DNA from: a bacterium
Lineage (GTDB): Bacteria; UBA8248
Assembly: GCA_965221165.1 (NCBI GenBank)
Contig: CBDCRP010000003.1
Coordinates: 1,536,064-1,600,063, forward strand
Length of the DNA stretch: 64,000 nt
Direction: 5' to 3'
Shown here: in pieces, positions 21,445 through 43,590 of the stretch
Position numbering within the stretch: the first letter of the stretch is position 1
Layout: each line of letters starts with the position of its first letter
The notes under the pieces: generated by a model
The model's database searches: none
What the model saw: only the letters and a program-made list of their open reading frames with translations
What the model was told of the DNA's origin: nothing
Translations under genes and position numbers: made by a program

Positions 21445-21864
21445 CTACCCCTCCTCCACCTTCTTCCGTTGCTTCTTCTTCTCGGCGCGTTCGTGTTTGT
21501 CGCGCAGGCGTTTTTCTCGTGCTGCCCGGGTGGGGCGCGTGGGGCGGCGGGGTTTGGGAGGCGTAGAGACTTCGGCGAGGGCGGCGCGCAGTTTTTCGAG
21601 GCAATCGGCCACGTTTCGGCCCTGATCGCGAAAGCGGCTGCTCGAGATTATCACCTCGCCCTCGCGCGAGACGCGGCGCGGGAATTTCCGGCGAAACCTG
21701 CGCTTCACCCCCTCCGGCGCGCTCGATGAAGCCCCCATGTTCCAGCGCAGCACCGCCTTGCTCGACACCTTGTTCACGTTCTGCCCGCCGGGGCCCGAAC
21801 TCCGCGCGAACTGAAAGTGGATTTCCCTGAGCGGAATCTTGAGCCTCTCGTTCACGATGAGCAT
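21445..21864 (-). CDS. arfB: Alternative ribosome-rescue factor ArfB (peptidyl-tRNA hydrolase, GGQ)
   Basis: MLIVNERLKIPLREIHFQFARSSGPGGQNVNKVSSKAVLRW..., with a basic C-terminal tail KRLRDKHERAEKKKQRKK. Confidence 0.9.
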   Translation of the reverse strand: MLIVNERLKIPLREIHFQFARSSGPGGQNVNKVSSKAVLRWNMGASSSAPEGVKRRFRRKFPRRVSREGEVIISSSRFRDQGRNVADCLEKLRAALAEVSTPPKPRRPTRPTRAAREKRLRDKHERAEKKKQRKKVEEG

Positions 21865-21979
21865 GGGTGAATACTCCCAGGGGTTGGGGGCGGCTCATGG
21901 CGTTGGTGGGGGATATCCTACCATGAGCGGGGGGATTTTCGTGGTGGGTGGGTGTTGAGGGGGGAGGGGCGGCTCACCC

Positions 21980-22116: not shown

Positions 22117-24261
22117 ATGGCGAAATTGGCCAGAGCGGCAAAAACGGGCGGGCGCAGCCAGGCGAAATCCCGCTTTGCCGTGGGCGTGGACGTGGGGGGT
22201 ACGTTCACCGATGCGGTGATCGTGGACACGGAGCGGGGCAGGATCTATCAGTCCAAGGCCCCGACCACTCCCCAAGACCTATCGCAGGGCGTTTTCGACG
22301 CGCTGAACCTCAGCGAGGGTTTCTCGGCCGAAACCCTCCTCCCCCGGACGAACAAATTCGCTCACGGAACCACCCAGTCCACCAACGCCCTCTTCACCCG
22401 GAACGGGGCCAAGGTGGGCCTTATCGCCACCCGTGGGTTCGGGGATCAGATTCTCATCATGCGCGGCGGGGGGCGCGTGGCGGGGATGAGCCTGCCCGAG
22501 CGGCGCCACTTCGCTCCGACGTACAAACCCGATCCCATCGTCCCCAAGCCCCTCATCGTCGAGGTGTCCGAGCGGGTGGACTACAAAGGGGCCGTCATCA
22601 CCCCCCTCGACCCCGAGGAGGCACGCCGGGCGGTCGAAGCGCTTCTGGAAAAGGGGGTGGAGGCCATCTCGATTGCCCTCCTCTGGTCCCTCCGCAATCC
22701 GGCGCACGAGCGCGCCTTGCGCGATATCGCCGCCGCGCTTTCTCCCGGCACCTACGTGAGCGTCTCCTCGGAACTGGCGCCCGTCATCGGGGAGTACGAG
22801 CGAACCGCCACCGCGGTCATCGACGCCTACGTGGGTCCCTCCACCGTGGATTACATCCGCCTCCTGGCGGAACGCCTCCGTGACGCCGGACTTCGAAGCG
22901 CCCTCCTCATCCTCCAGGCGGGAGGGGGCGTCAGCCGAGCCGAGCAGGTGGTGCCGGTTCAGACCATCGAGTCGGGCCCGGCGGCGGGTATTCTGGCGAG
23001 CCAGTTCCTCGCCGAAAAACTGGGCCACCGGAACGTGATCGCCACCGACGTGGGCGGGACCACCTTCAAGGTGGGTCTCATCGTGGAGGGCGAGTGGGCT
23101 TACGCCCGGGATACGGTGGTCGAGAAGTTCACCTACCGCGCTCCCATGGTGGACGTGACCTCCATCGGTGCGGGGGGCGGCTCCATCGCGTGGGTGGACG
23201 AGGGGAGGCTCCGAATCGGCCCCCAAAGCGCGGCGGCGGAGCCGGGGCCCGCCTGCTATGGCCGGGGGGGCGCGGAGCCCACCGTGACGGATGCGGATGT
23301 GGTGCTGGGCTACATCGATCCTGATTATTTCCTGGGTGGGCGGATGCCCCTCGAAGGCGCGCTGGCGGAAAAGTCCATCCGAGAGCGGATCGCGGAGCCG
23401 CTCTTCGGGGGCGACGTGGTGCGGGCGGCGCTGGGAATCCGCCAGGTGGTGAACGCGCAGATGGCGGACTTGCTGCGCAAGGTGACGGTCGAGCGGGGGC
23501 ACGACCCCCGCGACTTCGTCCTCATGGTGTACGGTGGGGCGGGGCCTACGCATTGCACCCTTTTCGGCCCGGAGGCGGGCGTCGGCCGGGCGGTCGTCCC
23601 TTTCACCGCGCCGGTGCACTCCGCCTTCGGCGCGGTGACCTCGGACATGCGCATCACCCTGGAGCGGTCGGACCCCCTGGCCGCGCCGCCCGAACCGGGC
23701 CGGGTACGGAGTCTGTATCGGGCTCTTGAGAATGAAGCCCTGGAGCGGCTCAAGGCCGAGGGCAAGCGTCGGGGGGAGATCGAGCTTAGCCGCTCGGCCT
23801 CGCTCCGCTACCGCCGGCAGATGCATGAAGTGAGCGTTCCCGTTCCCGCTGGAAGGCTCGACGGAAAGGCGCTCGCGGGGACGGTGGACGAGTTCGAGCG
23901 CCGCTACGAGGCGCGCTACGGTCGGGGGGCGGCCTACCGGGAGGCGGGGGTGGAGTTCATCGGCTTCAAGGTCGAGGCCGTCGGAAGGGAGGCGAAGCCC
24001 CGGCTCGAGCGTCGGCGCCCGAAGGGGAAGAGCCCAAGCGGCGCGCTCAAGGGCCGGCGCCCGGTTTGCTTTGACGCCGTCAAGGGCCACCGGCGCACGC
24101 CGATCTACGAGGGTGAGCGGCTGGCGTCCGGCAACCTCGTCCCGGGGCCCGCCATCATCGAGTACGCCTCCACCACGGTGGTGGTGGGGCCGCGCCAGCG
24201 GGCCGAGGTGGATCCATACCAAAACGTGACGCTCCACCTAGGGGGAGGACGGAGGCGATGA
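22117..24261 (+). CDS. Hydantoinase/oxoprolinase A-family protein (HyuA / acetone-carboxylase-beta-like)
   Basis: FAVGVDVGGTFTDAVIVD, ATDVGGTTFKVGLI and ADVVLGYIDPDYFLGG. 714 aa. Confidence 0.85.
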   Translation: MAKLARAAKTGGRSQAKSRFAVGVDVGGTFTDAVIVDTERGRIYQSKAPTTPQDLSQGVFDALNLSEGFSAETLLPRTNKFAHGTTQSTNALFTRNGAKVGLIATRGFGDQILIMRGGGRVAGMSLPERRHFAPTYKPDPIVPKPLIVEVSERVDYKGAVITPLDPEEARRAVEALLEKGVEAISIALLWSLRNPAHERALRDIAAALSPGTYVSVSSELAPVIGEYERTATAVIDAYVGPSTVDYIRLLAERLRDAGLRSALLILQAGGGVSRAEQVVPVQTIESGPAAGILASQFLAEKLGHRNVIATDVGGTTFKVGLIVEGEWAYARDTVVEKFTYRAPMVDVTSIGAGGGSIAWVDEGRLRIGPQSAAAEPGPACYGRGGAEPTVTDADVVLGYIDPDYFLGGRMPLEGALAEKSIRERIAEPLFGGDVVRAALGIRQVVNAQMADLLRKVTVERGHDPRDFVLMVYGGAGPTHCTLFGPEAGVGRAVVPFTAPVHSAFGAVTSDMRITLERSDPLAAPPEPGRVRSLYRALENEALERLKAEGKRRGEIELSRSASLRYRRQMHEVSVPVPAGRLDGKALAGTVDEFERRYEARYGRGAAYREAGVEFIGFKVEAVGREAKPRLERRRPKGKSPSGALKGRRPVCFDAVKGHRRTPIYEGERLASGNLVPGPAIIEYASTTVVVGPRQRAEVDPYQNVTLHLGGGRRR

Positions 24262-26465
24262 GCGGGAAGCGCCTGGACCCCGTAACCTTCGAGGTTATCC
24301 TGCACAAGCTGAACCAGATCGCCGAGGAGATGTGCATCAGCTACGTGAATTGTTCGGGTTCGGAGCCGCTTGTCCAGGCCAACGACGCCAACGCGGGGAT
24401 CACGCTGCCGGACGGCTCCATGGTGGTGGTGGGGCCCTACGTCATCATCCAGGCCAACGTCCTTCCCCTCACCGTCTCCCATATCATGAAGCGGTGCCGG
24501 GAGAATCCGGGGATCGGCGAGAAGGACATGTTCATCTGCAGCGACCCCTGGGTGGGCCCCATCCACCAGCCCGACATCACCACGGTGGCCCCGCTCTTCT
24601 ACGAGGGCGATATCTTCTGCTGGACGGGCGCCTCGGGGCACCAATCGGACATAGGGGGGAAGGACCCGGGCGGGTTCTCCATCGGGGTGGTGGACGTCCA
24701 CCAGGAGGGCCTCCGGATGCCCCCGGTCAAGCTGGTGGAAGAGGGAGAGCTCCGCCAGGACCTTTTCGACTGGATCGTGAACTCGGTGCGGGATCCTCTG
24801 GTGGGCCTCGACGTCAAGGGCCAGATCGCGGCCAACCACGTGGGCCAGGAGAGGCTGATCGAGCTCATCGGGCGCTTCGGGGCGAAGGCGGTCAAGGCTT
24901 CCATGGAGGAGTCCATCCGCTACACCGAGAGGCGTCTCCGCAGGCGCCTGCGCTCTTTGCCCGACGGCACCTGGCGCACCCGCCAGCACATCGATCACGA
25001 CGGCCACGCGCCCAACCTCTACAAGATGGAATGCACCATGACGAAGCGGGGCGACAGCCTCTCGTTCGACTACGAGGGAACCGACCCCCAGGTGCGCAGC
25101 CAAGTGAACTGCACCTACACCGGCCTCATCGCCGGGACCCTCACCCCCGTCTATATCATGCTCGCCCACGACATCCCCTGGAACCGCGGCATCCTGAACC
25201 GGGTGGACATCCGCGCCCCCGAAGGGGTGATCAACAACTGCACCTATCCGACGCCCTGCTCCATGGCCACGGTATCGGCCTGTTACCTGACGCTGGACCT
25301 CGCCGCGGCCGCCATCAACCAGATGTGCGCGGCCTCGCCGGACTACCACGAGGAGGCCATGGCGATCTGGACCGCCGCCTCGGTGGCCCCCATGGTGAGC
25401 GGCACCAGCCAGCACGGCCATCCGTTCAGCCTAGTCGAGATGAGCCACTTCGCCGCGGGGGGCGGTGCCCTGACCCACAAGGACGGACAGGACAGCGCCG
25501 GGATGTACTTCACCACCACCCCCCTCATCTCCAACATCGAGACCACCGAGCAGTTCTACCCCGTCCTCTACCTCTTCCGACGGAATCTCCCGGATACCGG
25601 GGGGGCGGGCATGTACCGGGGCGGGTGCGCGGGCGAGATCGCCTTCATCCCGCACGACATGCAGAAGGAGTTCCACGAAACCGTTCTCATCGGAACCGGT
25701 CACGAGATGCCCAACTCGATCGGGCTGTGGGGTGGATTTCCCGGCGGTACCGGACGCCACATTCTCATACGCGGCTCGGACGTTCTGGACCGAATCGCGA
25801 AGAAAGCGCCCCTTCCCGCCACCCTGGAGGAAATGGGGGGCGAGCAGGTGGTCTTTCCGCCCAAGGCGCCCCGGACGCCCTTCTACCCGGGCGAGATCTG
25901 GTACTCGAACTGGCAGGGGGCGGGCGGATACGGTGACCCCCTGGACCGCGACCCCGAGGCGGTGCATGCCGACCTGTCGGCGGGGCTCGTCACCCGCGCC
26001 TGCGCCGAAGAGATCTACGGCGTGGCCCTGGATCCAGACGGGCGGGCGGACCATCCGGCCACTTCCGCCCTTCGGGAGCGCCATCGGGAGGCGCGGCGCG
26101 CGCGGGCGGGAGGCGGCTCCGTCCGCCCGGGCGACCCCCCGGCCCTTGCGGGAAGAGGGCTTCGGGCGAACGAGTACGTTGTCTGGGACGATGCGAATGG
26201 TGAACTCGCCTGCCGCAAATGCGGCTTCGGCTTCGGCCCCATGGACGCGGATCCCAAAGAGCGCGCCCTCTGCGAGGACGCTCCCCTCGCGGTCGGAGGG
26301 CCGATCATGGGGCAGCTCTATGACCGGGGGCGGTTCGTCTTTCGGCTCTATTATTGTCCCGGCTGCGTTTCGCTCCTGGAGTGCGAGGTTCTCCGGAAGG
26401 GGGACCCACCCGTCTGGGGCAGGCTCTCGGCGACCCGGCCCTGGCCGGGGAGAAAGAAGGTCTGA
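24258..26465 (+). CDS. Hydantoinase B/oxoprolinase-family protein with a fused C-terminal Cys4 zinc ribbon (acetone-carboxylase-gamma-like)
   Basis: LDPVTFEVILHKLNQIAEEM at the N-terminus. The C-terminus has ACRKCGFGFGP...YYCPGCVSLLECEV. There is an ATGA overlap with hyuA-like. Confidence 0.8.
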   Translation: MSGKRLDPVTFEVILHKLNQIAEEMCISYVNCSGSEPLVQANDANAGITLPDGSMVVVGPYVIIQANVLPLTVSHIMKRCRENPGIGEKDMFICSDPWVGPIHQPDITTVAPLFYEGDIFCWTGASGHQSDIGGKDPGGFSIGVVDVHQEGLRMPPVKLVEEGELRQDLFDWIVNSVRDPLVGLDVKGQIAANHVGQERLIELIGRFGAKAVKASMEESIRYTERRLRRRLRSLPDGTWRTRQHIDHDGHAPNLYKMECTMTKRGDSLSFDYEGTDPQVRSQVNCTYTGLIAGTLTPVYIMLAHDIPWNRGILNRVDIRAPEGVINNCTYPTPCSMATVSACYLTLDLAAAAINQMCAASPDYHEEAMAIWTAASVAPMVSGTSQHGHPFSLVEMSHFAAGGGALTHKDGQDSAGMYFTTTPLISNIETTEQFYPVLYLFRRNLPDTGGAGMYRGGCAGEIAFIPHDMQKEFHETVLIGTGHEMPNSIGLWGGFPGGTGRHILIRGSDVLDRIAKKAPLPATLEEMGGEQVVFPPKAPRTPFYPGEIWYSNWQGAGGYGDPLDRDPEAVHADLSAGLVTRACAEEIYGVALDPDGRADHPATSALRERHREARRARAGGGSVRPGDPPALAGRGLRANEYVVWDDANGELACRKCGFGFGPMDADPKERALCEDAPLAVGGPIMGQLYDRGRFVFRLYYCPGCVSLLECEVLRKGDPPVWGRLSATRPWPGRKKV

Positions 26466-26857: not shown

Positions 26858-26995
26858 ATCGAAACCGCAGTCGATTGTGTCCTGGTCATCGACCACAACC
26901 CGGGGCTCGAAGACCTCACCGCCCAGATTTGCGGCGGCGGACCCGAGCCCATGCGCCAGCGTATGGACGAGAAATTCCCGACCGCCGCCCTGGCC
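26858..26995 (+). pseudogene. Fragment of a histidine-phosphatase (SixA-like) gene
   Basis: ...VLVIDHNPGLEDLTAQICGGG...EKFPTAALA resembles the SixA-family C-terminal half (GHNPGL ... FPTAA). It has no N-terminal RHG part and no start codon. Confidence 0.4.
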
Positions 26996-27226
26996 GCGTG
27001 GGTGGACGAGGAGAGGCTCCGAATCGGCCCCCAAAGCGCGCCGGCCGAAGCCGAGGAACGCCACTACGCTATGCTGGAGCAGTCAGCCATGGCGGCGTGA
27101 CTCAAACAAAATGGCCTCCGCCAAACCCGGCGCGGTTCAGCGTGACAGCGATGTTTTCTGTTACAAATCTATGGTATAAAGAATCCCGGAACTTCTACTA
27201 GTTTAAGATAAGAAAGAGAACAGCCA

Positions 27227-29233: not shown

Positions 29234-30326
29234 CGCCGCCTCGGTGGCCCCCATGGTGAGCGGCACCAGCCAGCACGGCCATCCGTTCAGCCTAGTCGAG
29301 ATGAGCCACTTCGCCGCGGGGGGCGGTGCCCTGACCCACAAGGACGGACAGGACAGCGCCGGGATGTACTTCACCACCACCCCCCTCATCTCCAACATCG
29401 AGACCACCGAGCAGTTCTACCCCGTCCTCTACCTCTTCCGACGGAATCTCCCGGATACCGGGGGGGCGGGCATGTACCGGGGCGGGTGCGCGGGCGAGAT
29501 CGCCTTCATCCCGCACGACATGCAGAAGGAGTTCCACGAAACCGTTCTCATCGGAACCGGTCACGAGATGCCCAACTCGATCGGGCTGTGGGGTGGATTT
29601 CCCGGCGGTACCGGACGCCACATTCTCATACGCGGCTCGGACGTTCTGGACCGAATCGCGAAGAAAGCGCCCCTTCCCGCCACCCTGGAGGAAATGGGGG
29701 GCGAGCAGGTGGTCTTTCCGCCCAAGGCGCCCCGGACGCCCTTCTACCCGGGCGAGATCTGGTACTCGAACTGGCAGGGGGCGGGCGGATACGGTGACCC
29801 CCTGGACCGCGACCCCGAGGCGGTGCATGCCGACCTGTCGGCGGGGCTCGTCACCCGCGCCTGCGCCGAAGAGATCTACGGCGTGGCCCTGGATCCAGAC
29901 GGGCGGGCGGACCATCCGGCCACTTCCGCCCTTCGGGAGCGCCATCGGGAGGCGCGGCGCGCGCGGGCGGGAGGCGGCTCCGTCCGCCCGGGCGACCCCC
30001 CGGCCCTTGCGGGAAGAGGGCTTCGGGCGAACGAGTACGTTGTCTGGGACGATGCGAATGGTGAACTCGCCTGCCGCAAATGCGGCTTCGGCTTCGGCCC
30101 CATGGACGCGGATCCCAAAGAGCGCGCCCTCTGCGAGGACGCTCCCCTCGCGGTCGGAGGGCCGATCATGGGGCAGCTCTATGACCGGGGGCGGTTCGTC
30201 TTTCGGCTCTATTATTGTCCCGGCTGCGTTTCGCTCCTGGAGTGCGAGGTTCTCCGGAAGGGGGACCCACCCGTCTGGGGCAGGCTCTCGGCGACCCGGC
30301 CCTGGCCGGGGAGAAAGAAGGTCTGA
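29234..30326 (+). pseudogene. Duplicated 3' portion of the hyuB-like gene (last ~363 codons), with no cognate 5' part
   Basis: From ...SVAPMVSGTSQHGHPFSLVEM to the stop it is identical to 25373..26465. The 518-aa track ORF 28770..30326 is an accidental upstream extension that overlaps the methyltransferase in another frame. Confidence 0.8.
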
Positions 30327-36778: not shown

Positions 36779-36935
36779 GTGGACGCCCTTGCTCACCCGA
36801 AGACACTCGTCGAGCAAGCCTATGACGCCATGCTGGATGAAGTGGCAAAAAGGCTGAACGTCTCACGTCAGCCCATCACCAGCGCGCTGCCGATGCTCAA
36901 GTCCCAGGGCTTTGTTCGCGAAGCGGGGCGGCGGG
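36779..36935 (+). pseudogene. Remnant of a GntR-family regulator (HTH only, internally deleted, 3'-truncated)
   Basis: VDALAHPKTLVEQAYDAMLDE | VAKRLNVSRQPITSALPMLKSQGFVREAGRRG. About 15 residues normally found between the two parts are missing. The frame then runs into antisense arfB' sequence. Confidence 0.5.
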
Positions 36936-37242
36936 GTTTCGGGGGATTGGCGGCCTCGGCGAGGGCGGCTCTCAGTTTTTCCAGGCAATCGGCCACGTTT
37001 CTGCCCTGATCGCGAAAGCGGCTGCTCGCGATGACCACCTCGCGCGAGACGCGGCGCGGGAATTTCTCGCAAAACCTGCGCTTCACCTCTTCCGGCGCGC
37101 TCGCCGATGCGCCCATGTTCCAGCGGAGCACCGCCTTGCTCGACACCTTGTTCACGTTCTGCCCGCCGGGCCCCGAACTCCGCGCGAACTGAAAGTGGAT
37201 TTCCCTGAGCGGAATCTTGAGCCTCTCGTTCACGATGAGCAT
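36868..37242 (-). pseudogene. Diverged, 3'-truncated second copy of arfB (lacks the basic C-terminal tail)
   Basis: The first ~105 residues are about 90% identical to 21445..21864 (MLIVNERLKIPLREIHFQFARSSGPGGQNVNK...). After PPKPRRPA it reads into unrelated sequence. Its upstream ~95 bp is also shared with copy 1. Confidence 0.65.
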
Positions 37243-37421
37243 GGGTGATTACTCCCGGGGGGTGGGGGGCTCATGGCGTTGGTGGGGGATATCCTACCAT
37301 GAGCGAGGGGGACTTTCGTGGTGGGTGGGTTGGGGGGGGGTAGTAGCGGAAGAACTAGAAAAGTAAACTCCACCATTCCCGGTATACCGTGCCTGTTACA
37401 AATATCCGCAAAATAGAAGGG

Positions 37422-38048
37422 TCATTTTTTTTGTACAGGGTCGATTTTCGGCAAACTGCTACAAGTCGCCGCAACATCCTCCCCTATCATCTCAATAACC
37501 ATGCTTAATTGATGTTGTGGGACTCTCATGCGTGCATCGCGAAGGGCGTTCACTATTGCATCGATCTGACCTTGCTGTCCGAGCGCACTTCGTACTGTCT
37601 CATGGAGCAACAGATCTATTGTAGAAGCCACCACAAGATTCGGAAATCTATTTTTACAAATGTTCTGAGCTTTCCGCTCATCAATGAGCGCTACACCTCC
37701 TATTTCGTGAGCATATCCGATCGTCGTAGCCTCACCGTCGTCCAAGGTGTCCAGTGTAATCCCCACAACTAACGATTCGTAGATGCGGTTTCCGGCTTCA
37801 CCAAGTCGGGCTAGCTGGACGGCACCGCAGCCAATCAAAACCTTGAGTTTTTCAGCGTCCCTGTGTCCACGGGAGACACCTCTTTCTAATTCAGCGAATG
37901 TATGCTCGGTCACGGTAACCGATCCAGGTTGCGCCTTTATGATATCAATCGCTCGGCCCGTGGCGTTTAGATTGATAACGACACTTGCATCAGCAACGAG
38001 AACGGTACTCGAACTAATCTCAAAGCTTGAGGAGTTCATTCGCTTCAT
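37422..38048 (-). CDS. PIN-domain nuclease (gene 4 of the islet operon)
   Basis: VLVADASVVINL (first Asp), TEHTFAELE, and LDDGEATTIGYAHEIGGVALIDERKA (distal acidic residues). It overlaps the upstream gene by 29 nt. An alternative ATG lies at 38039. Confidence 0.65.
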   Translation of the reverse strand: MKRMNSSSFEISSSTVLVADASVVINLNATGRAIDIIKAQPGSVTVTEHTFAELERGVSRGHRDAEKLKVLIGCGAVQLARLGEAGNRIYESLVVGITLDTLDDGEATTIGYAHEIGGVALIDERKAQNICKNRFPNLVVASTIDLLLHETVRSALGQQGQIDAIVNALRDARMRVPQHQLSMVIEMIGEDVAATCSSLPKIDPVQKK

Positions 38049-39198
38049 TTTCCTCCGTTTCAGCCCCGTCGAGTACCTCCCTCATCTCATTTCGATCAAG
38101 GTTCAAAAGACGCGCAAGTTGGCCTTCACTATAAAAGTTTCGTTTCCAAACCTCTCTTGCCAATAGAGCCAGGCGCGGTGGAACAGGCCCTTGAGCATCT
38201 ATTGCGTGAATGCGTTTATCCGGCAAGTCACCCAATACCTGACGTGCCTGCTTATCAGTGATGCCCCCATTTGCGACAAACCAATCCCAAGTTCCCTTTC
38301 TAGCAAGAAAAAGCTCTTCGAGCCTACGTCCTATTGCTTCTCGCGAAATACCAAAAGCGTGAGCAAGAAGAATAATATGCCGCCGCGTCAGGTGAGACTG
38401 CCCGGCCGTATATTCTGCAAACCGCTGTTGGACAGCCCGTGCGGGCGTTAGGAAACAACGTGAGAAGCAATTTGCATAGCGTTCTTCGCGGGATGCAAAT
38501 TTCTCGTCTAGAGTGAAAACTTCGGGTTTTTGCCGGGTCCCCATAAAATGCGCGAGTTCATGAATAACGGATTGTCTGAGGCGTTCAATGGGATGGTTTG
38601 CATTCAAAAGTATGCAGGCTCCAGCAATTTCATCATATGCAAACAGCCCAGAAATTTTCCCATCCAGCCGTCTGAGATAGATCCGAATACCAAACCGAAG
38701 ATCAAGCATCTGAATGACATCGAGAATAGGCCCAGAACCAAGGCCAAGCCAGTCCCTGAGTTCCTGTGCGTCCTGTTCCGCCTGTATTCTCACATCGCCA
38801 GGAAGAATCGGCCTCTCGGGTGGGTAATTTCGTGTGCGTTCGATCCCGAGCATGTTCTCAAGTTCAACTTCCGCACGAACGAGATCGTTGAGTAGTTTTG
38901 CCGCATTCTCAATGGCATCGTTCGTACTTTGGTACAACCTACGAAAGCGTGGCACCATATCAAGATGAACAGCTTCCCGCCTCAAAATCGCATTGACGGA
39001 CGTGTCATATATAGCAGCTAACTTCTGTAATTCACTCATTCGGACTCGCCGCTGACCTTGCTCAAGGGCTACGATGGTAGTACGTGCAACATCAATTGCA
39101 TTAGCCGCTGATGCTTGGGTTTGTTTCGCTGATTCCCTTGCCATGCGAAGGCGTTGACCAATCTCTATGTCCGAAAATATGTCCGCAGGGAAAGTCAT
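38020..39198 (-). CDS. XRE-family HTH fused to an ImmA/IrrE (M78, COG2856) zinc metalloprotease (gene 3)
   Basis: The N-terminal IGQRLRMARESAKQTQASAANAIDVARTTIVALEQGQRRVRMSELQKLAAIY is an HTH_XRE. VIHELAHF is the HEXXH motif, followed by EERYANCFSRCFLTPA. The ATG at 39198 follows GAGGA and lies 2 nt after the upstream TAA. Confidence 0.75.
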   Translation of the reverse strand: MTFPADIFSDIEIGQRLRMARESAKQTQASAANAIDVARTTIVALEQGQRRVRMSELQKLAAIYDTSVNAILRREAVHLDMVPRFRRLYQSTNDAIENAAKLLNDLVRAEVELENMLGIERTRNYPPERPILPGDVRIQAEQDAQELRDWLGLGSGPILDVIQMLDLRFGIRIYLRRLDGKISGLFAYDEIAGACILLNANHPIERLRQSVIHELAHFMGTRQKPEVFTLDEKFASREERYANCFSRCFLTPARAVQQRFAEYTAGQSHLTRRHIILLAHAFGISREAIGRRLEELFLARKGTWDWFVANGGITDKQARQVLGDLPDKRIHAIDAQGPVPPRLALLAREVWKRNFYSEGQLARLLNLDRNEMREVLDGAETEENEANELLKL

Positions 39199-39200
39199 TT

Positions 39201-40568
39201 TTATCCTCGCGCCCATTGTTTTACAAAAGAATTAGGGCCAAGTGAGTCCAGGTAGTGTTGCCATTCATCCGCATGTTTTAGGAGGAGTGTTCTCAGGTAC
39301 TTAAAAATTTCTTCGCATGAATGGTCAAGCGCAGGCTCAAGAAGCATGGCGTGTCTCTCGACCAACAGCCTCATATTTTCTTTCTCCATAGTGGCCAGAT
39401 GCTCCATGTGCAGGACGCCTGCAATCGCGTAATTACGGTAGGCGCTATTTAACTTCGTGAAATCCGGATCGACGGCATCATCTAAGGTTGTCGCTGACAT
39501 GTTAATGCAGATGTAGGCATCGGGACGCTCTCTCAGGCCGGCGGCATGCACGGCGACTCGTCTCAACATGCAAGCAGCGCAGACTCCGCAGTGACGCCAT
39601 TTTCGATTTACGGAACTCCATTGGTTACTACGCCAGCAGGACCTCGTAGATTGCCAGTCGTTTTTTCCGGAAAGAGAACTGAACTTTTTAAGTGTCTCAC
39701 CTTTGGTGTTCCATATTCGCGGAAAAATGTAGCGAACTTGCTTACCTAGGAGCGCCTCAGTGAAACGCTGCATTCGCATCGTAAAAAGAGGATGATTCCG
39801 GTAATCCTTATAGGTGTGTCCTGAGTCTACCAACACTGGTCCGAACACGCCCTGTCCACTTTCGGGAACGATAATTTTCTCAGCATCGGTTATATAAGCG
39901 GCGATGGCGCTAATTAAAGTAAACTTGAAACCCCGACTACGAAAACTCGACTCTCTTTTGGGGGTATGACTTGAAACTTTATAGGGCACATTCGTGAAGG
40001 GTTGGAAGCCGTTGTGATGCGATGGTTTGTTACTACTCTTTGCTCCAATCCTTACACGAACGAGTTTTTCGCCGAACATTTCACCGAGGATGCCTGCTAC
40101 AGCAAACGAATCCATACCGTCACTAAATGCAATGATGGCTTCCGTTGGCACCTTCAAATTGAGATAATCCTGCGGTGGAGATGGTGCTTCACTCGAACGT
40201 CCAATGAAGTCTATTGACCAATAGTCTCCCGTTAGAAATCCAACCGCATCATGAAGTGCAGCGGATGTGTCCGGCGCATTCCACCGTGTAGGATCGTGTA
40301 CGGGTATTTTGAGTGATATTCGGCGCGCCCACTCTTGAGTCGGACGTTTGACGGTTCTATCGCCAAATTCGATGGCGGCAGCAACAACCATTGCATCATA
40401 AAGCACCGTTTCCCATCGGGCGAATGAATAGGTCCGTAGTGCTGCGGTCGAGAATCTTATGTCGCGCTCAAGTTCCAATGGAATGTAATCATTTCCGGGG
40501 TGCTGGCTCGGTTCTATCACATCAATTTTTTTCTCTGACATCCTTCCGAAAAAAGATTTGGTATTCAA
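39201..40568 (-). CDS. QueC-like PP-loop ATPase with an extra ~140-aa N-terminal domain (gene 2)
   Basis: AIIAFSDGMDSFAVAG is a variant SGGxDS PP-loop. It also has ESSFRSRGFKFTL, IVPESGQG, WNTKGETL and a C-terminal Cys cluster SCW...HCGVCAACMLRR, as in QueC CxxC..C. The TTG start overlaps the upstream TGA. Confidence 0.65.
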   Translation of the reverse strand: MNTKSFFGRMSEKKIDVIEPSQHPGNDYIPLELERDIRFSTAALRTYSFARWETVLYDAMVVAAAIEFGDRTVKRPTQEWARRISLKIPVHDPTRWNAPDTSAALHDAVGFLTGDYWSIDFIGRSSEAPSPPQDYLNLKVPTEAIIAFSDGMDSFAVAGILGEMFGEKLVRVRIGAKSSNKPSHHNGFQPFTNVPYKVSSHTPKRESSFRSRGFKFTLISAIAAYITDAEKIIVPESGQGVFGPVLVDSGHTYKDYRNHPLFTMRMQRFTEALLGKQVRYIFPRIWNTKGETLKKFSSLSGKNDWQSTRSCWRSNQWSSVNRKWRHCGVCAACMLRRVAVHAAGLRERPDAYICINMSATTLDDAVDPDFTKLNSAYRNYAIAGVLHMEHLATMEKENMRLLVERHAMLLEPALDHSCEEIFKYLRTLLLKHADEWQHYLDSLGPNSFVKQWARG

Positions 40569-41122
40569 AGCAACGGCCCCTCATCAAGACCAGTGCGTTT
40601 AGTTAAACGGAAATCGGTGTTTGAGAGGCTGCTAGACGTCAATTCCGATACAAGAGTTTCATATCCACATTGGGAGCGAGCAATACTTAAGCGGCTGCGT
40701 ATATATGACACACTGCCCGGTTTTTTTCTGAGATGATGCTCTTCGATTTGACGGCAAACGTCCAGTGCATAAGTTTCAAGAGCATTTTTAAATGCGTGCC
40801 TGAAAGCGGTATCACCGGTCATCCCGTTTTTGTTAACTTCAATTGCACAATCAAGGAGAATATTTCCCTCTGCAGAGCCTCGGCAAATCTGGCGGGCATC
40901 GTTAAGTTGTAAAGAGATTTCTTCCCTACACTGTGAAGCCTTTATTCCATTAACGAATATGTCACAAATTTCAGATAGTGGGACTTTTGAATAATCTTTC
41001 CTAAGGCCGAAAGAGAATGCTTCGTCCAACTCTACATGTGAAAATGCGGGACTTTGAGCTCTCTCTGCGAATTTTTTCCAGTGTCGCCTCATCGGCAAAC
41101 TTTTATGTGGCCCATCACTCAT
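40565..41122 (-). CDS. Hypothetical 185-aa protein (gene 1 of the islet operon)
   Basis: The ATG at 41122 has GGAGG 7 nt upstream. The product is MSDGPHKSLPMRRHWKKFAERAQ... and looks mostly helical. I recognise no family. Confidence 0.6.
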   Translation of the reverse strand: MSDGPHKSLPMRRHWKKFAERAQSPAFSHVELDEAFSFGLRKDYSKVPLSEICDIFVNGIKASQCREEISLQLNDARQICRGSAEGNILLDCAIEVNKNGMTGDTAFRHAFKNALETYALDVCRQIEEHHLRKKPGSVSYIRSRLSIARSQCGYETLVSELTSSSLSNTDFRLTKRTGLDEGPLL

Positions 41123-41142
41123 AAAGCACCTCCTATGTCATA

Positions 41143-41172
41143 ATTATATTTTAATATACCTGACATTGTCAA
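41143..41172 (-). promoter_or_regulatory. Near-consensus sigma70 promoter for the four-gene islet operon
   Basis: The minus strand reads TTGACA (41172-41167), an 18-nt spacer, then TATAAT (41148-41143). It sits ~20 nt upstream of the gene-1 ATG. Confidence 0.65.
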
Positions 41173-41278
41173 TAACAAAGGTGCTAAACTTCACCTTTCT
41201 TAAAAATCCAGCAACTGTCGGGGACAATGAAACAAATCGAGGTGATATTGCAGGCCACAGAAAGAAACACCCCCCCAC

Positions 41279-41440
41279 CCGCATTTCCCCGCATTTGCGC
41301 CTGGGCGCAAGTCTGAGCGGGGCATATCGCTTGAAAGTCCAGGCCTCATTCCGCTCCCCGGAACAAGTGAAAAAATGCTGAAAAATGGTGAAAAATAGGC
41401 GAAATTAAGTGAAAATATCTGAAAATTTATAATGTTGTTA
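41279..41440 (+). repeat. Inverted-repeat arm A: CCGCATTTCCCCGCATTT box plus a phased TGAAAA array
   Basis: ccgcatttccccgcattt at 41279-41296. gTGAAAAaatgcTGAAAAatggTGAAAAataggcGAAATtaagTGAAAAtatcTGAAAAtttataatgttgttatt at 41367-41440, with a period of about 10-11 bp. Confidence 0.75.
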
Positions 41441-41457
41441 TTATTAGGGTTACGCGG

Positions 41458-42624
41458 TTAAACGACCTTATCCGCGCGCATTCGGAAAATCTCCTCCTCA
41501 CCATAGCCGAGCTCGGCGAGAATGGCTTCGGTGTGCTCGCCCGCCCCCGGCGCAGGACGTGAGAAATCGGGCGTCTCGCCGCTGAACGCAAGCGGCGACC
41601 CAGGCAGCAAGCCCGGCCCGGCTACCGGGTGGTCGACCTGGACGAAGGCATCCGGGAAGCGTTCCTTCACCCGGGCGACGTCGTTGATGGCGCTCACCGT
41701 AACGCCTTTGGGGATAAGGGCCTCCTCCCACTCGGCGGTCGTCTTCTCGGTCAAGACGCTCTCCAGAATCCCGCGCAGGGCGGCATCGTTCGCCACGCGG
41801 TCTTTGTTCTCGGCGAAGCGCGGATCGTCGGCGAGCGCCGGCCGGCCTAGGGCCTCGACGAAGACGCGGTAGCGGTTCGTGTTCGAGATCGCCACGAAAA
41901 TGAGGCCGTCTTTCGTCTTATAGCCCGAAAAAGGAGAGACCACCGGATGGGAAAGCCCCTCGGGCCGAGGCACTTGGCCTGTGAACGTGTGGCGCGCCAC
42001 CGGGTTTTCCATGATGTTCACCGTCGCGCCCATCATCGAGGCGTCTACGCGCATGCCCTCTCCGGTGCGCTCCCTGCGGAACAGGGCGGTGAGAACGCCC
42101 GAGAGGAGATAGAGGCCGCTCGCCACGTCCACAATCGAGACGCCCACGCGCACGGGTTCTCCGTCCACAGGCCCCGTCACGCTGATGAGGCCGCCCGCGG
42201 CTTGCAAAAGGCTGTCGAAAGCGGGGCGCCCGGCGTTCTTCCCGGTCTGGCCGAAGCCTGAGACCGCTGCGTATATGAGCCCGGGGTTTTCTTTTTTAAG
42301 GACATCCCAGCCCACGCCCAGGCGATCCATGACGCCGGGGAGGAGGTTTTCCACCAGAACGTCCGCCCCGCGGCAGAGTTTCCTGAATACCTCCACGCCT
42401 TCCGGGTTTTTGAGATCAAGCGTGATGGAGCGCTTGCCGCGATTCAAGCTCATGAAGTAGCTGCTCTCGCCATTCCGGAAAGGACCGATGGCGCGGCTGT
42501 CCTCACCGCCGGGGCGCTCCACCTTCACGACTTCCGCGCCATAGCCCGCCAGATAGAGCGATACGATGGGGCCGGCATTAAACTGGCTGGCGTCAATGAC
42601 CTTCAAACCCTGGAGGAGTGACAT
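41458..42624 (-). CDS. Family III CoA-transferase (CaiB/BaiF)
   Basis: LQGLKVIDASQFNAGPIVSLYLAGYGAEVVKVERPGGEDSR. 388 aa. Confidence 0.85.
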   Translation of the reverse strand: MSLLQGLKVIDASQFNAGPIVSLYLAGYGAEVVKVERPGGEDSRAIGPFRNGESSYFMSLNRGKRSITLDLKNPEGVEVFRKLCRGADVLVENLLPGVMDRLGVGWDVLKKENPGLIYAAVSGFGQTGKNAGRPAFDSLLQAAGGLISVTGPVDGEPVRVGVSIVDVASGLYLLSGVLTALFRRERTGEGMRVDASMMGATVNIMENPVARHTFTGQVPRPEGLSHPVVSPFSGYKTKDGLIFVAISNTNRYRVFVEALGRPALADDPRFAENKDRVANDAALRGILESVLTEKTTAEWEEALIPKGVTVSAINDVARVKERFPDAFVQVDHPVAGPGLLPGSPLAFSGETPDFSRPAPGAGEHTEAILAELGYGEEEIFRMRADKVV

Positions 42625-42642: not shown

Positions 42643-43590
42643 CTAGCGGCGTTTCCTGGCGCTTTTGGGGGCCGTTTTCTTCGCAGCAGTCTTTTTCGCG
42701 GGTTTTTTCGTCGTTTGGGCGGGTTTTTTCGCCACTTGTCGCTTGGCCGCCTTCTTCGCGGCGACTTTTGGGGCGGGGGCTTTCTTCGTTGCAGCTTTCG
42801 CGGCTTTGGGGGCGACCGTCTTCTTTTTGACCGCCGTTTTCCTCGTAGCCGCCGCTTTTTTCTGGGCGGTAGCCGTATTCGTCTTGGAGAGGGTCGTTTT
42901 TCTCTTCACCGTAGTGGTCTTCTTGGAAGCAGCGGCCGCTTTCTTTTTCAAAACGGAGGCTTTTTTCCTGGCCGCTGTTCGTTTTTTCTGCACTGCGGCT
43001 TTTCTAGAGGCTTCTTTCTTTTTTTGCGCCTGTTGTTTTTTCCTTTGCTTTTGTTCTTTGATACGCACTGCCTCAGCAGCCCGTATTTCTTCTTCCGTAG
43101 GCGGAAAAACAGGTTTCCTCCGACCCGTAATCAAGCGAAAGGCATACCCCACTTGGGTTTCGCGCCATTCATTCTCCCCGAGATCCTGCAACACAAGTTC
43201 GACCGGAGAGCCCGGAACAAGCATGTCCCGATAACCTTCCCAATCGATTAAATGGGAATTTATCTTTATGCCCTCATCGAGGAGTATTACCGCAGAAACG
43301 CGCTCTTCGTTCCCTTCCACAGATGAACGGGTAACCGTGGCCGAAAGAAGTTTACCCTTCCCGCTGAGAAGCACTTCACTCGTGCTACGCGGACAAACCG
43401 GGTTATCACAAGTGGTTTTCGAGCCGGTCTTCGGGAAAAAATACTCTTCGCATTCCTTACAAACAGACCCAATGAGTTTGGGCTTATGACGAGAATTCCT
43501 GGGAATCGTAAAAACATCGCGCATAAACGGAACAACAACTTTATTTTTCTCAGGTACGAAAATCGAAGGCTGATTCTGGGGGGAGTTCAT
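42643..43590 (-). CDS. Zn-ribbon/OB-fold (DUF35-like) protein fused to a ~140-aa lysine/alanine-rich histone-H1-like tail
   Basis: GSVCKECEEYFFP...CDNPVCP is the zinc ribbon. LLSGKGKLLSATV...AVILLDEGIKI...PVELVL is the OB fold. The tail follows: KKQQAQKKKEASRKAAVQKKRTAARKKASVLKKKAAAASKK...KKPAKKTAAKKTAPKSARKRR. Confidence 0.65.
   Translation of the reverse strand: MNSPQNQPSIFVPEKNKVVVPFMRDVFTIPRNSRHKPKLIGSVCKECEEYFFPKTGSKTTCDNPVCPRSTSEVLLSGKGKLLSATVTRSSVEGNEERVSAVILLDEGIKINSHLIDWEGYRDMLVPGSPVELVLQDLGENEWRETQVGYAFRLITGRRKPVFPPTEEEIRAAEAVRIKEQKQRKKQQAQKKKEASRKAAVQKKRTAARKKASVLKKKAAAASKKTTTVKRKTTLSKTNTATAQKKAAATRKTAVKKKTVAPKAAKAATKKAPAPKVAAKKAAKRQVAKKPAQTTKKPAKKTAAKKTAPKSARKRR

Follow-up and report, generated by a model that had tools for sequence, protein, structure and literature searches.

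Within the window, the 64-kb stretch of DNA analyzed here, ORF analysis identified four co-directional minus-strand ORFs (g1 to g4) that together span 37422-41122 and follow a single promoter. The features are as follows.

41161-41171, no strand assigned: candidate operator, the palindrome TGACA-A-TGTCA, embedded in the -35 hexamer
41143-41172, minus strand: sigma-70 promoter TTGACA-18-TATAAT
41135-41140, minus strand: candidate third operator half-site, TGACAT, at about +1, abutting the GGAGG at 41129-41133
40565-41122, minus strand: g1, 185 aa; orphan all-alpha protein, candidate substrate or partner of g2
39201-40568, minus strand: g2, 455 aa, TTG start; predicted PP-loop ATP pyrophosphatase (QueC-like) of the QatC clade
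38020-39216 (alternative ATG at 39198), minus strand: g3, 398 aa; XRE-HTH, M78 (ImmA/IrrE) peptidase and C-terminal domain; RmrA-like candidate autorepressor/antitoxin
37422-38048, minus strand: g4, 208 aa; predicted PIN-fold nuclease of the COG2405/DUF3368 type with a C-terminal helical extension; candidate toxin/effector
37450-41213, minus strand: horizontally transferred unit (promoter and four genes), from identity to metagenome contig L165 and GC content

The packing and the coupled junctions are exactly as the initial annotation had described them: stop and start overlap in TTGA between g1 and g2, g2 and g3 are joined by TAA-aa-ATG (or, with g3 starting at its upstream ATG, by an overlap of 16 nt), and g3 and g4 overlap by 29 nt. 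The AT-rich islet that it reported is equally evident, with a GC content of 0.41-0.50 over 37250-41500 versus 0.58-0.66 on either side, as is the left border at an arfB repeat, since the arfB-bearing repeat at 36925-37349, which copies 21508-21972, terminates ~70 nt away from the stop codon of g4. The one observation that failed was the inverted-repeat arm proposed as the right border; inverted repeats looked for there did not rise above chance level, and the region contains phased A-tracts. Positions 37450-41213 align with contig L165 over 3769 nt at 93.2% nucleotide identity, the remaining flanks being unrelated, and it is this interval that truly travels. The cassette is horizontally acquired and forms a GC-deviant insert in the window. 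Its flanks here consist of housekeeping genes.

The promoter, previously called near-consensus, matches the consensus at 12/12 positions and is the sole perfect match in the window, with 0/100 shuffles yielding one; the expected GGAGG Shine-Dalgarno is also found, at a spacing of 6 nt from the g1 ATG. In other loci the TTGACA hexamer is conserved at an equal distance from g1. The palindrome TGACAnTGTCA occurs once in the window versus 0.01 times expected by chance. Over the -35 hexamer, ~50 nt ahead of the g1 gene, GACAnTGTC is present in 79/80 genome loci (53-fold over the locus background), and it appears again in 36 of 40 independent metagenome and plasmid loci. Alignment of 109 anchored upstream regions shows the conserved consensus CTGACAT.GgAG, and the distance from palindrome to start codon is fixed at 47-48 nt. 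The candidate operator travels together with the cassette, as one promoter/operator upstream of g1, with none ahead of g3.

For g2, the earlier QueC-like PP-loop call was correct in that the protein matches QueC/QatC, the Pfam QueC model covering its C-terminal part only. It matches QatC both in PADLOC (4e-31) and in the PDB (9zee_B, 4e-17); the NCBIfam QatC model gives 119 bits, below its cutoff of 280, and hhalign to QatC reaches 99.2% for residues 50-355, a stretch that takes in the QatC-specific N-terminal extension. Over this stretch g2 shares with QatC the PP-loop, the RxRxxxF adenine site, the ExG, HP and P(x)4TK motifs and the CGxCxxC Zn site. Invariant residues are S149/G151/D153/S154, C311/C327/C330/C333, D58 and D255/R257/H259/P260, so that the PP-loop, the Zn cysteines and the equivalent of catalytic D63 (D58) are all intact (motif definitions from PMC13329287). 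The question of whether this is an ordinary QueC can be answered in the negative: it scores 22 bits against TIGR00364 (cutoff, 150) and lacks the QueC catalytic motifs, and a role as the queuosine-pathway enzyme was rejected. By sequence, g2 belongs to the QatC clade; residues that recognize CDG are absent as well, and the ligand may be other than a deazapurine. The C-terminal ~100 residues, which in QatC form the partner-binding region, do not align with QatC, and the substrate-pocket residues T278/T280 of QatC are replaced by D255/R257. Because of these two differences, the chemistry of g2 may differ from that of QatC.

The g1 protein belongs to no family in Pfam, NCBIfam, PADLOC or PHROGs, and its AF2 model (pLDDT, 85; nine helices, with residues 1-12 and 169-185 disordered) has no structural neighbor in PDB or BFVD. 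The g1 family comprises 886 clusters at the 50%-identity level. While the body is merely 24-53% identical, the very N-terminal residues, M-[S/T]-D-G-P-aromatic-[R/K]-[S/T]-L, scarcely vary (MSDGPHKSLPM in this window), with D3-G4-P5 present in 129/129 representatives. This invariance is strong, if indirect, support for g1 as the predicted substrate of g2, and we regard it as a candidate substrate or partner. In a covariation test of the g1 tail, g2 was not separated from g3. The arrangement resembles the QatB-QatC core of qatABCD (Gao et al. 2020; PMC13279940, PMC13376578, PMC13639016), where a small all-alpha protein with a disordered and highly conserved extreme N-terminus is likewise encoded directly upstream of the enzyme gene, with a 4-nt overlap. 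The g1 tail likewise recalls the conserved tails MGTS and MGGS, which reach into the active sites of QatC and Cap9 (PMC13279940, PMC13376578). Gly2 is essential in QatB and the CD-NTase. However, homology of g1 to QatB was rejected (hhalign probability, 0.1-1.4%). The g1 tail also reads MSDGP, not MGTS, is ~12 rather than 30-90 residues long, and lacks Gly2, the glycine being residue 4 (in one distant member, position 2 is Arg).

The XRE-ImmA/IrrE assignment of g3 agrees with its Pfam domains, HTH_3 and Peptidase_M78. The protein has the architecture of RmrA, with full-length matches to RmrA antitoxin models in PADLOC (1e-20, residues 21-304), a conserved HExxH (H219, E220, H223) and the highest conservation among the four proteins (53-89% identity). 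For g4, the PIN call is borne out by predicted structure despite a weak Pfam match (E=0.047): the AF2 model (pLDDT, 90) matches VapC toxins and Nob1 with a Foldseek probability of 1.0 and TM scores of 0.6-0.7, confirming a true PIN fold. Homologs of g4 carry PF11848, and four acidic positions are invariant (D20, E53, D104/E106, D123/E124). The whole PADLOC PDC-S70 model is covered by g4 (5.6e-9), and none of the PADLOC RmrT toxin models matches it.

The four genes form an obligate unit. They occur in the same order in 115/115 informative loci from at least 8 phyla and plasmids, without exception in either direction. The predicted co-localization of the four families was recovered from both ends: wherever the contig of a genome locus was long enough (76/76), all four genes lie on one strand in this order, and searches anchored on the PIN gene found the other three in 56/56, 41/41 and 39/39 loci. 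The layout is kept at 33-37% g2 identity, including the most distant plasmid members, the stop/start overlaps are retained in other loci, and no fifth conserved gene appears across the genome loci. The identity matrices of the four proteins are correlated (Mantel r=0.85, reached by 0/999 permutations) and dN/dS is 0.21-0.25 for each gene; the cassette genes co-evolve under purifying selection. The distribution is patchy, with ~370 loci among 185,579 species genomes from at least 8 phyla, and the cassette is kept intact in hundreds of bacterial species. It is carried on conjugative and mobilizable plasmids, and its neighbors often include known defense systems: type I R-M, Eco57I R-M with PLD, DUF262 and RelE, or Shedu at some loci, and SoFic, Gabija, AbiE and GmrSD. 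Recognizable defense islands are not found at all loci, many flanks being housekeeping genes. The cassette was not found in phage genomes or viral contigs, which counts neither for nor against the leading explanation given below.

Is this gene set already known? PADLOC returns only isolated matches on the cassette, to QatC, RmrA and PDC-S70, and NCBIfam has nothing for g1 or g4. PGAP labels g1 to g4 as hypothetical, '7-cyano-7-deazaguanine synthase' (a name that JGI also gives to g2), HTH and hypothetical. In a 2026 survey of the QueC family, the neighbors given for QatC are KAP NTPase and TatD only. The initial annotation knew of no named system with this gene set, and neither literature searches nor PADLOC and NCBIfam models cover it; QatA/QatD, CD-NTase and TGT partners are absent, as it had also stated. 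All of the computational refutation tests that it named beforehand were run and passed. The cassette very probably represents an anti-phage or toxin-type system that has not been described before.

Its parts nevertheless have relatives. In contrast to qatABCD, the cassette has neither QatA (KAP NTPase) nor QatD (TatD) and always includes the protease-HTH and PIN genes. Taken alone, g3-g4 would by sequence be a RosmerTA-like member of a long-predicted toxin-antitoxin (TA) class, the 'three-component TA' class of Xre-COG2856 plus toxin (Makarova 2009, PMC2701414; Matelska 2017, PMC5499597), and earlier work explicitly describes PIN proteins of the COG2405/DUF3368 type encoded downstream of HTH-DUF955 fusions. 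RosmerTA (Millman et al. 2022) is a two-gene system in which, as here, a toxin-type gene with an overlapping start follows the RmrA gene, whereas g3-g4 never occur without g1 and g2 and are preceded by no promoter/operator of their own. Type IV CBASS (bioRxiv 10.1101/2025.04.06.647259) also combines a QueC-family enzyme with a conserved-tail protein as its likely substrate, but it has a CD-NTase and Cap10/TGT, its target residue is Gly2, and its Cap9 is a minimal ~185-aa QueC with a CDG-binding Y/D motif that the 455-aa g2 lacks. CapH/CapP, ImmR/ImmA and DdrO/IrrE likewise pair an M78/COG2856 peptidase with an XRE repressor and an operator (here a candidate) at the controlled promoter; in g3 both functions are fused in one protein encoded within the operon. 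The VapC-like fold and conserved acidic residues of g4 recall VapC-type PIN toxins, and g4 also matches the PADLOC candidate PDC-S70, which is defined as a single gene; g4 adds the helical extension and has no VapB-type antitoxin. PDC-S70 lowered EOP 100-1000-fold in one test, with a representative distant from g4 (bioRxiv 10.1101/2024.09.26.614923).

We give about an even chance to the cassette being a self-contained mobile four-gene conflict system, most likely an abortive-infection anti-phage system, in which a QatBC-like module is hard-wired to a RosmerTA-like module. The first module (g1 and g2) would work like QatB-QatC: g2, predicted to be active, would spend ATP on activating a carboxylate substrate, which it would then attach to the invariant, disordered g1 tail (S/T-D-G-P-aromatic-K/R-S/T-L once Met is removed), turning g1 into a covalently switchable signaling protein. 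The second (g3 and g4) would work like RosmerTA. The XRE-HTH of g3 would repress the operon from the palindrome over the -35 hexamer and the half-site at +1, and g3 would restrain the g4 PIN nuclease; upon infection, the M78 peptidase domain of g3 would inactivate this repressor/antitoxin, so that operon expression rises, the PIN RNase is freed and the infected cell stops growing. As a pure inference, the two modules may be functionally coupled, with the state of g1, modified or unmodified, as the signal linking sensing to the protease/PIN switch.

Alternatively, the cassette could hold two independent co-travelling systems without a signal between them: a QatBC-like defense pair (g1 and g2) and a RosmerTA-type TA pair (g3 and g4) serving addiction, stabilization or separate defense. 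Both halves look like systems that function by themselves: QatB-QatC suffices for defense (PMC13279940), pairs of Xre-COG2856 and PIN genes form TA modules of their own (PMC2701414, PMC5499597) and RosmerTA has only two genes; moreover, defense systems cluster in general. We still consider this unlikely, if a serious contender, given the perfect co-occurrence without partner swapping or separate occurrence down to 33% identity, the single promoter/operator before g1, the coupled junctions throughout the operon and the congruent divergence of the four proteins. Independent modules in defense islands are usually reshuffled. A further alternative makes g3 a transcriptional switch only and not an antitoxin, a fused CapH/CapP or ImmR/ImmA type that senses DNA damage or ssDNA and induces the operon, with g1 directly controlling the PIN nuclease, for example by activating or releasing it once modified by g2. 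In PADLOC, g3 matches CapP with its peptidase domain (7e-12) and CapH with its HTH (3e-5), a repressor role would fit the conserved candidate operator over the -35 hexamer, and g3 is the slowest evolving of the four proteins, as expected if it binds DNA at an operator that is itself fixed. Precedent exists in that CapH+CapP regulate many immune operons, with ssDNA stimulating repressor cleavage (PMC13228613). Yet g3 matches RmrA antitoxins over their full length, its 22-29 nt overlap with g4 in most loci is the usual antitoxin-toxin coupling, and it lies inside the operon, unlike CapH and CapP, usually two genes located upstream of or divergent from the operon that they control; a purely regulatory g3 is improbable in our view.

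A role outside immunity, as a regulated stress-response or metabolic module (e.g., 7-deazaguanine/queuosine-related salvage) or as a purely selfish addiction cassette that brings no benefit against phages, would fit the PGAP and JGI name of g2, the housekeeping genes that flank many copies (including the one in this window) and the ability of TA-like modules to persist selfishly. This seems very improbable: g2 has no QueC catalytic motifs and falls far under the QueC model cutoffs, QatC itself cannot replace QueC (PMC13329287), and no queD/queE, other metabolic neighbor or riboswitch occurs at the loci. The patchy horizontal distribution, the plasmid-borne copies and the known defense systems adjoining the cassette likewise argue against it.

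The cassette occupies about 37422-41122 of the window and consists of four minus-strand genes, g1 to g4.

Genes of the cassette in the window
40565-41122, minus strand, g1: ORF of 185 aa, orphan protein
39201-40568, minus strand, g2: ORF of 455 aa with a TTG start, PP-loop enzyme
38020-39216, minus strand, g3: ORF of 398 aa (392 aa from the ATG at 39198), XRE helix-turn-helix (HTH) and M78 peptidase protein
37422-38048, minus strand, g4: ORF of 208 aa, PIN-fold nuclease

The ORF calls and junction sequences bear out the co-directional, coupled arrangement described in the initial annotation: the stop of g1 overlaps the start of g2 in TTGA, the g2-g3 junction reads TAA-aa-ATG (or becomes a 16-nt overlap when the upstream ATG of g3 serves as the start), and the g3-g4 overlap is 29 nt long. 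The near-consensus promoter claimed ahead of the first gene (TTGACA-18-TATAAT, 41172..41143) matches at 12/12 positions, is the sole such match in the 64-kb window and was yielded by 0/100 shuffles; GGAGG lies 6 nt upstream of the g1 ATG. The AT-richness noted for this islet is equally real, with a GC fraction of 0.41 to 0.50 versus 0.58 to 0.66 in both flanks. Elsewhere, however, cassettes have a mean GC of 0.59 against 0.595 in their flanks, which rules out AT-richness as a general trait and argues that the GC dip in the window reflects recent acquisition.

As had been proposed, the left border of the cassette is abutted by an arfB-bearing repeat of ~430 nt (36925-37349), a copy of 21508-21972; the inverted repeat claimed for the right border was looked for there in the window sequence and could not be reproduced. 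The two arfB segments (RF-1 domain, GGQ) are 87 to 94% identical, and the second has a diverged C terminus. In the metagenome contig that carries the closest relative of the window cassette (L165), an 80-aa arfB fragment (9066-9308) lies immediately upstream of the cassette. Since arfB sequence thus borders the cassette in both places, arfB may be an insertion hot spot or target. Phased A-tracts (TGAAAAA-like units with a period of ~10) at 41365-41427, in the right-border region just upstream of the promoter and outside the stretch common to the window and its closest relative, may represent intrinsically curved DNA or an UP-like element.

A search with an alignment of g2 homologues in a collection of one genome per species (185,579 species) retrieved 369 related stretches, and 80 of these loci were fetched for neighborhood analysis. 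All four genes were there, with order and strand unchanged, in 76/76 loci with sufficient contig (median cassette length, 3.71 kb), and the hosts include Nitrospinota, Alpha-, Beta-, and Gammaproteobacteria, Gemmatimonadota, Acidobacteriota, Chloroflexota, Verrucomicrobiota, and Desulfobacterota. When g4 served as the anchor instead, in metagenome contigs at 42 to 64% identity, g3 was found in 56/56, g2 in 41/41, and g1 in 39/39 cases where there was room, so that the co-localization on which the initial annotation depended holds with either anchor. Plasmid sequences split cleanly: full-length hits at 33 to 58% identity all have the four-gene layout, whereas those at ≤31% are canonical qatABCD. 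Within ±7 kb of the 76 loci there is no conserved fifth gene or mobile-element gene, the most frequent flank family occurring at only 9/76 loci. Divergence is also correlated between the genes, with a Mantel r of 0.85 between the pairwise-identity matrices of g2 and g4 as well as of g1 and g3 (a value reached by 0/999 permutations), and dN/dS between the window and its closest relative is 0.21 to 0.25 per gene. Together, linkage, correlated divergence, and dN/dS argue from sequence that the four genes are one unit of inheritance and of selection. One Longimicrobiales metagenome-assembled genome holds two diverged complete cassettes on two contigs (L020 and L021), whose g2 proteins are 52% and 51% identical to that of the window.

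The promoter region contains a palindrome, TGACA-A-TGTCA (41171-41161), that includes the -35 hexamer and occurs once in the window versus 0.01 times expected by chance. Its core, GACAnTGTC, recurs ~50 nt 5' of the g1 start in 79/80 genome loci, a 53-fold enrichment over the locus background, and again in 36/40 independent metagenome and plasmid loci. The upstream consensus reads TTGACATTGTCAG, a 17- to 18-nt AT-rich spacer with the -10 element, CTGACAT, GGAG, and the start codon, with a fixed distance of 47 to 48 nt from palindrome to start codon. The HTH of g3 is the only DNA-binding domain of the cassette, and g3 is also its slowest-evolving protein (53 to 89% identity). The simplest reading is that g3 would autorepress the whole operon through this candidate operator.

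Although PGAP labels g2 a 7-cyano-7-deazaguanine synthase, this is a mislabel. The protein scores 22 bits against TIGR00364 (QueC; cutoff, 150), matches Pfam QueC only over profile positions 126-207, the C-terminal third of the model, and gives a marginal match (0.04) to the generic QueC model of PADLOC. At 455 aa rather than ~220 aa, it lacks the YxQxHxxE, VPxRN, and YPDC motifs of canonical QueC, and no que genes (canonically queD/queE) are among its neighbors. An ordinary queuosine-pathway QueC, which the initial annotation had named as the reading to be excluded, is therefore ruled out. On sequence grounds g2 instead clearly falls in the QatC clade: it matches PADLOC QatC (4e-31) and the solved QatC structures in the PDB (4e-17), and hhalign aligns it to QatC with a probability of 99.2% over residues 50-355, including the QatC-specific N-terminal extension. 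The PP-loop residues S149, G151, D153, and S154, the zinc cysteines C311, C327, C330, and C333, and D58 (equivalent to catalytic D63) are invariant across 24 diverse g2 homologues, and most motifs that Libby et al. (PMC13329287) give for the QatC cluster are found in g2 too. The protein nevertheless differs from QatC, scoring 119 bits against the NCBIfam QatC equivalog (cutoff, 280) and sharing 24 to 31% identity over 63% of the protein with PGAP-named qatC products. Its last ~100 residues do not align to QatC, in which the last ~100 residues form the QatB-binding base (PMC13279940), and the positions of QatC T278/T280, which are invariant in QatC and needed for defence, are occupied by an equally invariant D255/R257.

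The orphan g1 has no match in Pfam, NCBIfam, PADLOC, or PHROGs. Its AlphaFold2 model, built with 93 homologues, is a confident nine-helix bundle (pLDDT 85, pTM 0.80) with disordered residues 1-12 and 169-185, and Foldseek found no significant structural neighbor in BFVD or in a PDB library cut in April 2026, a date that QatB entries may postdate. At the sequence-profile level a diverged QatB is ruled out, since hhalign gave a probability of 1.4% when g1 was compared with Pseudomonas aeruginosa QatB alone and 0.1% with a profile of three QatB sequences; the PADLOC QatB models likewise do not match. A mimic of a phage protein is ruled out by the absence of BFVD and PHROG matches. An exhaustive profile search defined 886 clusters at 50% identity, nearly all of 183 to 192 aa and matching from residue 1. 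While the body of the protein is only 24 to 53% identical between loci, its N terminus is essentially fixed as M-[S/T]-D-G-P-[H/Y/W/F]-[R/K]-[S/T]-L, with D3, G4, and P5 present in 129/129 representatives of 50%-identity clusters. The two most distant plasmid members begin MTDGPFR and (V)RDGIWKGLP; because both retain Asp3-Gly4, this pair is the most persistent core of the tail. A conserved G-L-D-E-G-P at residues 178-183 of the disordered C terminus (window ~40571-40591; G178, D180, and G182 at ≥90%) echoes the invariant N-terminal S-D-G-P and might serve as another site of recognition or cleavage.

The remaining two genes resemble a toxin-antitoxin pair in their parts. g3 combines Pfam HTH_3 and Peptidase_M78 (XRE HTH plus ImmA/IrrE, COG2856) with a conserved HExxH; it gives full-length matches to fourteen PADLOC RmrA models, best at 1e-20 over residues 21-304, and at the domain level by CapP (7e-12) and CapH (3e-5). 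PDB entry 9vzy_A, a 393-aa "HTH cro/C1-type domain-containing protein," matches g3 weakly over HTH and peptidase (E = 1.5e-4) and may be the first structure of the fused architecture. For g4 the Pfam PIN match is only marginal, but the AlphaFold2 model (pLDDT 90) has a clear PIN fold with an extra C-terminal helical extension and aligns to VapC toxins and Nob1 with a Foldseek probability of 1.0 and TM scores of 0.6 to 0.7. Its homologues carry PF11848 (DUF3368/COG2405), the PADLOC single-gene candidate PDC-S70 matches it at 5.6e-9, and the acidic residues D20, E53, D104/E106, and D123/E124 are invariant, as fits a VapC-like PIN toxin.

How does the cassette relate to described systems? Its enzyme invites comparison with QatC, which forms a 1:1 complex with QatB that is sufficient for defence and whose first substrate has yet to be found; QatB reaches into the active site of QatC with its disordered N-terminal tail (MGTS), in which Gly2 is indispensable (PMC13279940, PMC13376578). 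The QatB tail is long and carries a glycine motif, whereas that of g1 has ~12 residues and begins MSDGP. Canonical qatABCD loci also show QatA (a KAP-family NTPase) and QatD (a TatD nuclease), unlike cassette loci. In a 2026 survey of the PF06508 family, KAP NTPase and TatD are the only QatC-cluster neighbors listed, and only ~34% of the cluster adjoins them (PMC13329287). Type IV CBASS combines Cap9, a CD-NTase (N terminus MGGS), and the TGT-like Cap10; there, Cap9 joins 7-carboxy-7-deazaguanine to the CD-NTase, whose N-terminal Gly is the point of attachment (bioRxiv 10.1101/2025.04.06.647259). The initial annotation had reported no QatA/QatD, CD-NTase, or TGT-like partner, and indeed none is conserved around the 76 loci. 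On the side of the output genes, g3 has the architecture of RmrA, the XRE HTH plus zinc-peptidase antitoxin of RosmerTA, for which an rmrA-deleted strain was unobtainable. RosmerTA, however, is a two-gene operon with the toxin RmrT, while the cassette always has four genes and g4 is matched by none of the PADLOC RmrT models. Xre-COG2856 fusions followed by COG2405 PIN genes have been predicted to form three-component toxin-antitoxin systems (PMC2701414, PMC5499597).

By this comparison, the cassette would work like QatBC joined to RosmerTA and is a member of neither, because QatA, QatB, QatD, and T278/T280 are missing on the one side and RmrT and the two-gene layout on the other. PADLOC v2 would yield no more than isolated QatC, RmrA, and PDC-S70 matches, models for g1 and g4 are absent from NCBIfam (June 2026), and full-text literature searches found no description of this four-gene set, in agreement with the earlier view that no named system covers it. 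The interpretation as a candidate undescribed defence or abortive-infection operon has survived every computational test proposed with it, and we rate the cassette as a putative defence system based on QueC-family protein modification, in which both the substrate family and the output module are new.

The surroundings of the cassette vary widely. Positions 37450-41213 share 93% nucleotide identity with a metagenome contig that has otherwise unrelated flanks and in which the cassette adjoins a complete type I restriction-modification (R-M) system. Another copy lies beside an Eco57I-type R-M system, a PLD nuclease, a DUF262 protein, and a RelE/XRE pair, and a further one beside a Shedu nuclease; SoFic, Gabija GajA+GajB, AbiE pairs, GmrSD, relaxases, and resolvases are among the other neighbors (the flank-ORF comparison covered a 46-ORF subset of 76 long flank ORFs). 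Some copies are located on conjugative or mobilizable plasmids, and others, including that of the window, are flanked by housekeeping genes. Carriage by phages was rejected, as neither the 50,697 phage records nor the 2.9 M viral contigs searched gave a match. The cassette was not found in Escherichia coli, no riboswitch or other Rfam family was detected in it at E ≤ 1, and no tRNA was found near it. On Sinorhizobium chiapasense plasmid pB (L164, 8228-11329), genes for an HD-domain protein, an AAA ATPase, a 3'-5' exonuclease, and a radical SAM protein adjoin the cassette and may constitute another, uncharacterized defence system.

The analysis shows identities, motifs, linkage, operator, and context, whereas the functional steps are inferred. 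In a composite model, g2 would use ATP to modify the invariant g1 tail, and g3 would both repress the operon via the palindrome and neutralize g4; infection would activate the g3 peptidase, removing the repressor and antitoxin and freeing the PIN RNase, and the state of g1 would be the coupling signal between the two modules. We give this combination of g1 modification, g3 repression and antitoxin activity, PIN release, and coupling through g1 roughly an even chance, and are much more confident in the broader view of the cassette as some sort of mobile conflict system. The modules might instead be two independent systems that travel together; linkage without an exception, one promoter for all four genes, and coupled junctions weaken this reading, which we consider unlikely. 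Somewhat less probable still is that g3 acts only as a transcriptional switch like CapH/CapP, with g1 controlling the PIN nuclease. In those systems, the M78 peptidase CapP is activated by ssDNA and cuts the repressor CapH (PMC13228613); g3 resembles them at the domain level and an operator is present, but in the cassette the two domains are fused and encoded inside the operon, whereas CapH and CapP are separate and upstream of theirs. A non-immune metabolic or purely selfish module is very improbable, as the QueC motifs are lost, metabolic neighbors are lacking, and the context is that of defence islands.

Alternatively, the invariant Asp3-Gly4 might point to new QueC-family chemistry that does not start from a Gly exposed by Met removal, a long shot for which two routes can be imagined. 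The infection-activated M78 peptidase of g3 could trim M-S-D, expose Gly4, and thereby "license" g1 for conjugation by g2, or g2 could directly adenylate the Asp3 side chain of Asp-Gly, a route that would involve no small molecule as first substrate; g1, once modified, would set the PIN RNase free. If true, this would amount to a covalent protein switch, gated by a protease, that connects phage sensing with a toxin, and would provide a natural handle on the QatC reaction. A covariation test of variable g1-tail positions against g2 columns did not separate these readings from one another: g3 columns covary equally strongly, probably through clade effects.

Protein-modifying QueC-family enzymes are a very recent discovery (2025-2026), and the QatC reaction is unsolved despite three crystal-structure papers. 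The cassette offers a widespread natural variant of a QatC-clade enzyme that contrasts with qatABCD in three respects: the tail is much shorter, invariant, and substrate-like (SDGP, not G), the substrate pocket carries D/R instead of T/T, and there is a recognizable output module, a protease-repressor plus a PIN nuclease, that qatABCD is missing. Two problems become testable as a result, namely, which moiety these enzymes add to proteins and how the mark becomes an immune or toxic response. The cassette is strictly conserved and self-contained and provides a readable effector for comparison with the QatC reaction, and its own consensus promoter and operator should make it easy to move into a test host. 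Defence-finding tools and annotation overlook this conserved system, which occurs in hundreds of species and on plasmids, the key enzyme being called a queuosine biosynthesis gene.

Elsewhere in the window, a perfect 300-nt direct repeat (25373-25672 and 29234-29533) and a 94% identical 54-nt repeat (23187-23240 and 26995-27048) share a spacing of ~3.8 kb, which suggests a recent tandem duplication of that size. The minus-strand ORF at 42643-43590 has a long Lys/Ala-rich, histone-H1-like C-terminal tail and lies in a region of extreme AT skew (about -0.5).
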